Below, piece after piece: positions 7,748 through 10,543 of a stretch of DNA of 40,899 nt. The position numbers were made by a program, and so were the translations under genes. The notes under the pieces were generated by a model that was not told the origin of the DNA, made no database searches, and saw only the letters and a list, made by a program, of their open reading frames with translations. Position 1 is the stretch's first letter. Every line of letters begins with the position of its first letter. The DNA lies in the IMG/VR virus record IMGVR_UViG_2778261393_000006. The stretch is one strand, 5' to 3'. The stretch comes from a virus (taxonomy: Duplodnaviria; Heunggongvirae; Uroviricota; Caudoviricetes).

Positions 7748-8167
7748 TTAAGAGGCTTTTTGTTTTTTCTTTCGTGCTAACTCTTCGTAAATTGCATTGT
7801 ACTTCTGTTTTTTCTCCTCAAGAGTTTTTAAAAGTTCATCTGTCTCACTGTCAGGGAGCTCGTCCAGAAGGTCAATGATGATTTTTTGTCTTGGATTTAA
7901 CTCCTGATAGAAACGTACCTGTCCACTTTCTTCTGTATCCTCTCCCAAAAGATAGGTTGGTGTTGTTCCAATGAGTGTTGCTAATTCCCTTAATTTCTCT
8001 CGGCGAGGAATTGTTTCGCCATTAAACCATTTGCTAACCGCTTTTGGTGTTAATTTCATTCGACGGGCAATTTCTGCCTGCCTTCCATGTTGTTCATAAC
8101 CAGCGTTTTCACAGGCTAGCGCAAGCCTACTGGCGAACTCTTTACGCGCTTTATCTTCATGAACCAT
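7748..8167 (-). CDS. racR: CI-like prophage repressor (HTH XRE family), RacR-like
   Basis: 139-aa ORF with N-terminal HTH (QAEIARRMKLTPKAVSKWFNGETIP); divergently arranged with a Cro-like gene, as for lambda cI/cro and Rac racR/ydaS. Confidence 0.75.
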   Translation of the reverse strand: MVHEDKARKEFASRLALACENAGYEQHGRQAEIARRMKLTPKAVSKWFNGETIPRREKLRELATLIGTTPTYLLGEDTEESGQVRFYQELNPRQKIIIDLLDELPDSETDELLKTLEEKKQKYNAIYEELARKKKQKAS

Positions 8168-8246
8168 AAGTTCAATGATATTCGCTCTTGAATGTACTGT
8201 CAGTTCTGTTATAGCATGTACTCAAAGTTCACATTGTGAGGGTGAT
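8168..8246. promoter_or_regulatory. Divergent promoter/operator region between racR and ydaS (OR analogue)
   Basis: 79-bp intergenic region between divergent repressor and Cro-like genes; two direct ATGTACT copies (about 8192-8198 and 8216-8222); weak sigma70-like hexamers (TTGAAT ... TATAGC) only. Confidence 0.4.
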
Positions 8247-8501
8247 ATGAACCAGAAAACACTTGAAGATGTAATCAAAACTGTTCGCGTTTCTGTTGTG
8301 GCCGACGTTTGTGGTGTCAGCCAAAGAGCAATCTACAAATGGATGGATAACGGAAAATTGCCTCGCACAGAATATACCGGCGAAACAAATTACGCTGAAA
8401 AAATCGCTCATGCATCAAACGGATTATTTTCTGCCGATGTAATTTTAACTATTGGCAGAAATAAAACTACTACGAAAAAGCTGATGGGAGTTGATTCATG
8501 A
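8247..8501 (+). CDS. ydaS: Cro-like HTH protein YdaS (toxic when derepressed, per literature)
   Basis: Start at internal ATG preceded by GAGGGTGA; HTH motif VADVCGVSQRAIYKWMDNGKLP; position immediately after the divergent repressor. Confidence 0.7.
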   Translation: MNQKTLEDVIKTVRVSVVADVCGVSQRAIYKWMDNGKLPRTEYTGETNYAEKIAHASNGLFSADVILTIGRNKTTTKKLMGVDS

Positions 8502-8932: not shown

Positions 8933-9790
8933 ATGCTGTTTGTGCTTATTCTAAGCAACCGGGCAGCATCATACGGGGCAATTATGGCCGCATTACCATA
9001 CATGCAACTGTACATAGCTGATTACCTGGCTGACACCATGCATTTGTCAGCAGAGGAGCATGGTGCGTATTTGTTGCTGATGTTCAATTACTGGCAAACA
9101 GGAAAGCCAATACCTAAAAACAGGCTGGCAAAAATTGCCCGTCTGACTAACGAGCGATGGGCTGATGTTGAACCATCCTTGCAGGAGTTTTTTTGCGATA
9201 ACGGCGAGGAATGGGTGCATCTTCGGATTGAGGAAGATCTGGCATCAGTCAGGGAAAAATTAACCAAAAAATCAGCCGCAGGAAAAGCATCTGTTCAGGC
9301 CAGAAGAAGCAGAAAGGAAGCAGATGTTCAAACAAAACAAGAGAGAAATTTAACAGGTGTTCAAACAGATGTTGAAGTGGTGTTTGAACATGATGTCAAC
9401 ACAAAGGCAACTAATAAAGATACAGATAAAGATCTAAAAACAGATCCCCCCCTAAATCCCCCCCGGGGGAATCGAGGTGTCAAAAAGTTTGACCCTCTGG
9501 ATATTGCTTTGCCGAACTGGATTTCTGTCTCGCTTTGGCGTGAGTGGGTTGAATTTCGCCAGGCATTGCGAAAACCGATTCGAACGGAGCAGGGCGCTAA
9601 CGGGGCGATACGGGAGCTGGAAAAATTCCGCCAGCAGGGTTTTTCACCTGAGCAGGTGATTCGACACAGCATCGCCAATGAATACCAGGGCTTGTTCGCG
9701 CCGAAAGGTGTTCGACCTGAGACGTTACTCCGACAGGTTAACACCGTCTCGTTACCGGATAGTGCGATCCCGCCAGGCTTCAGGGGGTAA
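8933..9790 (+). CDS. ydaU: Replication initiator-like protein YdaU (DUF1376, lambda O analogue)
   Basis: 285-aa ORF recognised as YdaU; contains an internal iteron-like repeat cluster and a Pro/Asp-rich linker, as in O-type initiators. Confidence 0.8.
   Translation: MLFVLILSNRAASYGAIMAALPYMQLYIADYLADTMHLSAEEHGAYLLLMFNYWQTGKPIPKNRLAKIARLTNERWADVEPSLQEFFCDNGEEWVHLRIEEDLASVREKLTKKSAAGKASVQARRSRKEADVQTKQERNLTGVQTDVEVVFEHDVNTKATNKDTDKDLKTDPPLNPPRGNRGVKKFDPLDIALPNWISVSLWREWVEFRQALRKPIRTEQGANGAIRELEKFRQQGFSPEQVIRHSIANEYQGLFAPKGVRPETLLRQVNTVSLPDSAIPPGFRG
9323..9394. repeat. Iteron-like repeats (candidate replication origin) inside ydaU
   Basis: TGTTCAAACA at about 9325-9334 and 9358-9367 (direct, 33 bp apart) and inverted TGTTTGAACA at about 9381-9390, followed by an A-rich stretch (aactaataaagatacagataaagatc). 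Confidence 0.4.
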
Positions 9791-9796
9791 CTGACC

Positions 9797-10543
9797 ATGA
9801 AAAATATTGCGACAGGCGATGTTCTTGAACGTATCCGCAGACTGGCCCCGTCACATGTAACCGCGCCATTCAAGACGGTAGCGGAGTGGCGCGAGTGGCA
9901 ACTTTCCGAAGGCCAGAAACGTTGTGAGGAGATCAACCGTCAGAATCGTCAGTTGCGGGTGGAAAAAATTCTGAATCGCTCTGGCATCCAGCCATTGCAC
10001 CGCAAATGCTCGTTTTCGAATTACCAGGTGCAGAACGAAGGGCAGCGATACGCGTTGAGTCAGGCGAAATCCATCGCTGATGAACTGATGACCGGGTGTA
10101 CAAATTTTGCGTTCAGCGGAAAACCTGGTACCGGGAAGAACCACTTAGCGGCAGCTATCGGGAATCGCCTGCTGAAAGACGGTCAGACAGTGATTGTGGT
10201 TACCGTGGCTGATGTTATGAGTGCCCTGCACGCCAGCTATGACGATGGGCAGTCAGGCGAAAAATTTTTGCGGGAACTGTGCGAAGTGGATCTGCTGGTT
10301 CTTGATGAAATTGGCATTCAGCGCGAGACGAAAAACGAGCAGGTGGTACTGCACCAGATTGTTGATCGCCGGACAGCGTCGATGCGCAGCGTGGGGATGC
10401 TGACAAACCTGAACTATGAGGCCATGAAAACATTGCTCGGCGAGCGGATTATGGATCGCATGACCATGAACGGCGGGCGATGGGTGAATTTTAACTGGGA
10501 GAGCTGGCGTCCGAATGTCGTCCAGCCAGGAATTGCGAAGTAA
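9797..10543 (+). CDS. ydaV: DnaC-like helicase loader ATPase YdaV
   Basis: 248-aa ORF with Walker A ([15 protein letters not shown]) and Walker B (LLVLDEIG) motifs; recognised as YdaV, IstB/DnaC family. Confidence 0.85.

Follow-up and report, generated by a model that had tools for sequence, protein, structure and literature searches.

One of the closest described systems to the locus reported here is ori-lambda, the origin of phage lambda, which lies in the middle of gene O and consists of iterons followed by an AT-rich tract (PMC7466680); another is oriJ, described as the active origin of the Rac prophage (PMC3945230). Here we analyse a 40,899-nucleotide stretch of Caudoviricetes DNA (IMG/VR record IMGVR_UViG_2778261393_000006; the whole stretch is called the window), which is a Rac-type prophage of Escherichia coli, and within it the replication initiator gene ydaU. 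The Rac origin has been known genetically since the 1970s, and an origin inside the initiator gene is a classical arrangement; oriJ itself was reportedly defined genetically by Diaz and Pritchard in 1978/79 and by Potrykus et al. in 2000, in Plasmid 44:111. The linker-coding part of ydaU holds three copies of a 10-nucleotide sequence (10-mer), and we consider it likely, judging from the sequence evidence set out below, that these are the strongest units of an initiator-binding array belonging to a Rac-type replication origin, which would probably be identical with the genetically defined oriJ.

As in ori-lambda and in the Stx and other lambdoid origins, the candidate origin sits mid-gene in the initiator, where the interdomain linker is encoded, and its repeats contribute to the amino acid sequence of that protein. 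Several repeats with internal dyad symmetry, an AT-rich tract downstream and a helicase-loading gene next in line are also shared with ori-lambda (PMC7466680), as is a mosaic boundary adjoining the origin. A preliminary description of this stretch had proposed a lambda-like layout, and this is what we find: repeats in the linker-coding part, a low-stability tract downstream, a mosaic junction after the repeats and the helicase-loader gene next. The two systems differ in the N-terminal domain of the initiator (DUF1376 in YdaU, Phage_rep_O in lambda O), in the flanking sequence (here a GAT-phased or (GATACA)n hexamer tract) and in the partner protein (here the DnaC-like YdaV, in lambda the P protein). 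They also differ in the repeats, which are units of 9-10 base pairs (bp) at 11-12-bp intervals in the one case and ~19-bp iterons at ~22 bp in the other; lambda-type origins have at least four ~19-bp iterons with dyad symmetry, but the six or seven dyad units present here measure only 9-10 bp. Because N-domain family and iteron size both differ, YdaU is, by its sequence features, outside the lambda O family.

Results

Exact copies of the 10-mer, TGTTCAAACA, number three in the whole 40.9-kb window, all inside 66 bp of ydaU. Their counterparts in relatives were read from a DNA alignment of 12 sequences, nine Enterobacteriaceae among them:

9325-9334, plus strand: unit 1, TGTTCAAACA, exact match, within an 11-nucleotide (nt) stretch without counterpart in the 11 other aligned sequences
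9358-9367, plus strand: unit 2, TGTTCAAACA, exact match, aligned with the best-conserved unit of the family, CGTTCAACG, plus one extra A
9381-9390, minus strand: unit 3, an inverted copy that reads TGTTTGAACA on the plus strand, exact match

Two direct copies and an inverted one had been described at 9320-9395, and all three were recovered exactly, the direct pair 33 bp apart from start to start. The inverted copy begins 23 bp after the second, and the distance of 14 bp given for it has to be corrected to a gap of 13 nt. The window holds no further exact copy, only four scattered matches with one mismatch each. Since the 10-mer is a near-palindrome (TGTT-CA-AACA), direct and inverted copies are told apart solely by their two central bases. 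In the reading frame of ydaU both direct copies code for V-Q-T (gaT GTT CAA ACA and ggT GTT CAA ACA), and the inverted copy is read in a different frame (gTG TTT GAA CAt, VFEH). With the ATG at 8984 as the first codon, the repeats encode residues ~114-136 of YdaU, which lie between DUF1376 (5-87) and NKDTDKDLKTDPPLNPP, in keeping with the earlier placement in a linker-coding region. When synonymous codons were permuted within ydaU, keeping protein and codon composition, at least three copies of any 10-mer inside 100 bp appeared in 1/5000 permutations (9-mers, 6/5000; 8-mers, 31/5000).

The 10-mers are the best units of a longer array of about seven positions (~9325-9414), in which GTT..AAC units recur every 11-12 bp, or about one helical turn. 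Recognisable units start at 9325, (9348), 9358, 9370, 9381, 9394 and 9407, with AAC cores at 9331, 9352, 9364, ~9375, 9387, 9398 and 9409. The remaining units, a lone one upstream and the tract that follows the array are:

9164-9173, plus strand: lone upstream unit GATGTTGAAC, at the site of a second CGTTSAACG pair (gene nt 183 and 194) in many homologues
9348-9357, plus strand: weak unit ATTTAACAGG, aligned with a conserved TAACG unit of the homologues, with invariant AAC columns
9370-9379, plus strand: degenerate unit TGTTGAAGTG, recognised by DNA alignment with homologues
9394-9401, plus strand: short unit TGTCAACA, conserved as xCAAC(G/A) in the alignment
9407-9414, plus strand: last unit GCAACTAA, with invariant AAC and AATAAAGAT directly after it
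9415-9446, plus strand: A-rich tract of low stability, in which GAT recurs at hexamer phase (GATACAGATAAAGATCTAAAAACAGATC) and GATC occurs twice, counterpart of the (GATACA)n of homologues and proposed unwinding element

The 90-nt array segment has a lag-11 self-identity of 0.43, a value matched by 183/20000 synonymous permutations and lying in the top 0.16% among all 90-nt windows of the stretch. The A-rich stretch said to follow the repeats directly is indeed there: GC content within ydaU-ydaV is lowest at 9380-9439 (30%), and of all 50-bp duplexes in the two genes 9390-9439 is the least stable, at -58.1 kcal/mol (98th percentile; window mean -69.2 kcal/mol, standard deviation 5.0). Scans for promoters and terminators returned nothing at the array, and the DnaA box TTATNCACA was absent from 8933-10543 at up to one mismatch, its count in the whole window being at chance level.

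Elsewhere in the window, two more 90-nt segments with high lag-11 self-identity lie at ~21861 and ~15726, and a 36-bp tandem repeat of 2.1 copies occupies 24091-24164.

Homologues were collected by a genome scan, which gave 53 loci from Enterobacteriaceae, Pseudomonas, Rahnella, Serratia, Azotobacter, Methylococcaceae, Propionivibrio and various metagenome-assembled genomes, and seven phage loci were added; a scan of viral contigs with YdaU residues 1-155 yielded only copies 98-100% identical, uninformative on divergence. Nearly all genes of the YdaU clade carry (C/T)GTT(C/G)AAC(G/A) units at gene nt 330-420, followed directly by (GATACA)n or AATAAAGATACAGAT. In a non-redundant set of 31 linker segments, less than 80% identical in any pair and taken from Enterobacteriaceae, Pseudomonas, Bordetella, Azotobacter and other hosts, self-identity peaks at lags of 11 (0.47), 22 (0.38) and 33 (0.34) over a baseline of ~0.25, and a downstream control is flat. 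Refinement of a position weight matrix on these segments led to CGTTCAACG(A/G) as consensus, and matches to the matrix are spaced by 11 (18 times), 22 (six), 23 (three), 33 (three) and 99 bp (once). The strict 9-mer CGTT(C/G)AACG occurs 34 times at gene nt 300-470, 13 times at nt 149-194 and seven times in the other ~140 kb, a 45-fold higher density in the linker than in all other sequence.

As 11 is not a multiple of three, the motif is read in all three frames, as R-S-T (CGT TCA ACG), V-E-(R) and (P)-L-N-(E), and this produces the odd, semi-conserved peptide RST.VE.PLNE..STN. The codons behind this peptide are frozen. RST is written CGT TCA ACG in 16/18 cases and CGC TCA ACG in 2/18, at a usage of CGT, TCA and ACG elsewhere in the same genes of 20%, 16% and 23%; identical residues share their codon in 93% of sequence pairs for the linker RST, compared with 43% in the conserved first 42 codons, which served as a control for relatedness. 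In the flanking tract TD is coded ACA GAT in 71/85 instances, and the GC content of third codon positions drops there from 0.72-0.88 to 0.45-0.53 in high-GC hosts. Conservation of the linker is in this way shown, by comparison of sequences, to act on the DNA beyond what the protein requires. The preliminary description had suggested aligning homologues to see whether conservation of this kind exists, and had named a repeated peptide written in divergent DNA as fatal to its proposal; the opposite was found, units held constant in three frames and at synonymous sites.

Many homologues have a second pair of CGTTSAACG 9-mers, 11 bp apart at gene nt 183 and 194 within the DUF1376 coding region, where the encoded peptide DVE.TLNEFF coincides with a helix predicted at 56-66; E. 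coli retains one GATGTTGAAC. This pair could be a second binding locus, ~170 bp upstream. Behind the array, close relatives differ in the copy number of (GATACA)n, from 2 to ~10 units, in the manner of a microsatellite (six loci compared), and the sequence of the unit is unchanged across distant hosts.

The genes and coding regions that surround the array are:

8984-9790, plus strand: ydaU, replication initiator gene of 268 amino acids, from the open reading frame list; PHROG 6451 'primosomal protein'
8996-9244, plus strand: region coding for the N-terminal DUF1376 domain (residues 5-87), a predicted winged helix and the proposed origin binder
9446-9464, plus strand: CCCCCCC-TAAAT-CCCCCCC (PPLNPP), start of the exchangeable C-terminal module and mosaic junction
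9449-9787, plus strand: region coding for the C-terminal half, found by tblastn in O-type initiators too (Gifsy-1/2 and others); proposed recruiter of the helicase loader
9797-10543, plus strand: ydaV, DnaC-like helicase loader; Pfam IstB_IS21, NCBIfam PRK12377/DnaC, PHROG 50

Gene order is that of a lambdoid early region (repressor, Cro-like, YdaT (CII-like), ydaU, ydaV). The ydaU gene matches that of strain TUM14771 at 100% identity, K-12 ydaU at 99.8% and the one in phage vB_EcoS-683R6 at 99.7%, and it is intact in more than 700 E. coli genomes. In every homologue, from Pseudomonas to Enterobacteriaceae, the protein opens with MAALPY, in ydaU the ATG at 8984, which is the likely true start; the K-12 annotation, from 8933 (285 amino acids), probably includes 17 codons too many. 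The immunity region at 7748-8501, which encodes a 139-amino-acid repressor and an 84-amino-acid Cro-like protein, is unlike K-12 racR/ydaS and resembles phage 673R7 in gene sizes and layout, so that ydaT-ydaU-ydaV of K-12 type stand beside a 673R7-like immunity region, another mosaic joint.

The earlier label 'O-like' fits one half of YdaU. Its C-terminal part (156-268) also occurs in 'replication protein O' from Gifsy-1/2, SPN3UB, mEpX1 and others, which have N-domains of lambda O type, but the N-domain of YdaU is DUF1376 rather than Phage_rep_O: Pfam reported only DUF1376 in YdaU and no PF04492, which the control, Gifsy-2 O, did give, and NCBIfam had no model for the protein. An AlphaFold2 model of the N-domain (pLDDT 88.6) matched mostly winged-helix structures, including replication initiators such as RepA 4pta. 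A winged-helix initiator, in YdaU a predicted one only, is what the locus shares with iteron plasmid origins (the staphylococcal RepA_N initiator 4pta; pPS10/RK2-type); those origins have iterons of ~17-22 bp, usually outside the rep gene and often with DnaA boxes, of which 8933-10543 contains none. The last 76 residues of YdaU (193-268) align weakly to the C-terminal region of E. coli DnaT, or primosomal protein I of PriA-PriB-DnaT restart (phmmer against PDB, 2ru8 and 9zbt, E 0.003-0.009), and the tail NTVS.PDS.IPPGFRG is identical in the two proteins; DnaT, whose action is upstream of DnaB-DnaC loading, differs in lacking both an origin and a domain for sequence-specific duplex binding.

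Throughout the relatives the array stays with the DUF1376 N-domain, and the C-terminal half and the next gene change, the latter being of DnaC/IstB-like, lambda-P-like (PF06992) or DnaB-like helicase type. In E. coli genomes the N-part with the repeats (query 45-495) and the C-part (497-858) also occur separately, which places a mosaic junction just after the repeats; the actual junction is at the GAT and C-tract region, downstream of the array. Where DUF1376 occurs in fusions without the linker, the array is missing as well. Distant DUF1376 genes have other repeats in the same place, namely seven TGCAAA units at 11-12 bp in Acetobacter phage phiAX1 (gene nt 327-411) and seven xAACC units at 8 bp in Acinetobacter phage Ap7 (gene nt 403-468). 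Initiators that have the C-terminal module in common with YdaU but no DUF1376 carry sites of their own: Gifsy-2 O has six or seven 22-bp iterons at the equivalent place, and the O-like gene of phage 673R7 has GTAAC/GTTAC half-sites in its linker. These associations support, short of proof, binding of the array units by the DUF1376 N-domain.

Several further observations concern the same modules. In some fusions DUF1376 is joined to T5orf172-like or HNH (PF01844/PF14279) parts, with no linker array, and from its sequence contexts it seems to be a portable DNA-binding module whose use is not confined to initiators. The sequence CCCCCCC-TAAAT-CCCCCCC recurs nearly identically in the 673R7 initiator gene, which has an unrelated N-domain (locus L003, ~2506-2524), and similar paired C-tracts are found in Bordetella and some metagenome-assembled genomes. 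The O-like gene of E. coli phage 673R7 also has three copies of one 20-21-bp palindrome, TGTAACGC..GCGTTACA, at 2021-2041, 2213-2233 and 2421-2440 of the same locus, ~200 bp apart and one of them upstream of the start codon.

Discussion

The array described here would fit a mechanism in which YdaU, through its predicted winged-helix domain DUF1376, docks on the GTT..AAC units, which recur every 11-12 bp along one helical face over ~9325-9414. The resulting nucleoprotein complex would destabilise the adjacent A-rich, GAT-phased tract (9415-9446), and the DnaT-like C-terminal half of YdaU would then recruit host DnaB through the DnaC-like loader YdaV.

Several observations weigh against an origin at this place. 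Support for it consists of sequence and model evidence, from which we infer binding by YdaU, unwinding in the A-rich tract and the start of replication here. The strict family 9-mer is absent from the window, and the E. coli units depart from the family consensus: within the alignment, the 11-nt stretch that holds the first is found in E. coli only, and the second reads GTTCAAAC where the family has GTTC-AAC, owing to a 1-nt insertion, the extra A. Five of the nine aligned Enterobacteriaceae (E. coli and four of the other eight) have the third unit, (C/T)GTTTGAACA. What is a 9-bp palindrome across the family takes a 10-bp form in E. coli, a deviation compatible with either shifted specificity or some decay of a cryptic prophage. 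Within the species, 28 distinct sequences have an invariant second 10-mer, a first with one change (C to A) in two of them and a third with one change in a single sequence of recombinant type (the L095/L096 form), and this variation is too low to reveal constraint on the 10-mers. In addition, recent papers call K-12 Rac replication-defective (PMC11014345, PMC11879457), and a primer pair published as 'framing oriJ' (supplement to De Paepe et al. 2014) gives an amplicon at 10054-10208 in ydaV, ~0.65 kb downstream of the array.

The departures from the family 9-mer and the replication defect ascribed to K-12 Rac could mean that the array is an ancestral origin, now degenerate and without function in this Rac-type element, its 10-mers being remnants or recent local duplications. 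We regard this as unlikely. Decay would not be expected to leave three exact copies, one of them inverted and perfectly complementary, the 11-12-bp phasing has been retained, and the gene is preserved both in vB_EcoS-683R6 and across E. coli. Moreover, oriJ has been reported as active (PMC3945230).

The conserved DNA might also be a cis element with another role, either the site of a different regulator or a recombination sequence at a module boundary, given that mosaic junctions adjoin the array and that the link between YdaU and the sites is one we infer. This possibility appears quite improbable. The array stays with the N-domain through exchanges of upstream regulators and of C-terminal modules, the junction lies outside it, and helically phased units beside a low-stability tract in an initiator gene are the classical layout of an origin (PMC7466680). 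The known YdaT box, ATGATT-n6-AATCAA, is a different sequence, and the array as an operator of the CII-like YdaT was rejected on this ground.

It is very improbable that the inverted copies act by forming a hairpin in single-stranded DNA or mRNA, as a primosome-assembly or priming signal for the DnaT-like domain or as an RNA structure. The arms at 9358 and 9381 can form a stem of 10-11 bp with a minimum free energy of -7.7 to -8.6 kcal/mol (z ~-2.5), and the C-terminal tail of YdaU is DnaT-like; however, over the full 91 nt z reaches no more than -1.1 to -1.7, and in many homologues all units point in the same direction, the 11-bp spacing being conserved and the complementarity not. With weak stability and unit orientation that is not conserved, a conserved hairpin or primosome assembly site was rejected. 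That the repeats are a product of chance or of a repeated peptide (VQT ... VQT), with no meaning at the DNA level, is barely credible, since both direct copies do code VQT but the inverted one is in another frame, and the permutation test, the non-triplet 11-bp period and the codons frozen across the family exclude it.

The proposal that the array belongs to oriJ can be set against the literature. The array lies in the same prophage module (Rac), and at the position expected of oriJ, in the early region next to the replication genes. The one primer pair mentioned above was the only pointer to oriJ at sequence level found by our search, which did not extend to the older oriJ papers, where the origin may have been placed at this very spot or at another one; the 2000 study by Potrykus enters here as cited in PMC11014345. 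The amplicon covers the Walker-A-coding part of ydaV and has no repeat structure. As a 0.65-kb offset serves a copy-number assay equally well, the primer pair is compatible with an origin at the array and does not contradict it, the published placement of oriJ being imprecise or different. Neither NC_000913.3 nor ON470595 has a rep_origin feature, and the location of oriJ at sequence level appears never to have been annotated. Full-text searches for the motif strings returned unrelated primers only, and, outside the older oriJ papers, which the search did not cover, we could not find a description of the array, of its 11-bp phasing combined with translation in three frames, of its (GATACA)n partner or of its conservation across the DUF1376 clade.

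More tentatively, DUF1376 proteins of the YdaU type may form a widespread and apparently undescribed class of phage initiators that carry the origin in their own linker; we give this somewhat less than even odds. The origin of such a class would consist of an 11-bp array of the 9-bp palindrome CGTT(C/G)AACG, translated in three frames, followed by (GATACA)n as an unwinding element of variable length, perhaps held open by the DnaT-like domain.

If these proposals are correct, DUF1376 would gain a function, origin binding, and oriJ a definition at sequence level, a 45-year-old genetic entity being pinned to a defined 120-bp segment. The linker would offer a clean case of amino acids dictated by a DNA-binding array, with one motif in three frames, from which it could be predicted which synonymous changes should kill Rac-type replicons. 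CGTTSAACG at 11-bp spacing together with GATACA repeats would then be a motif for finding origins in prophages of Enterobacteriaceae, Pseudomonas and other Proteobacteria.

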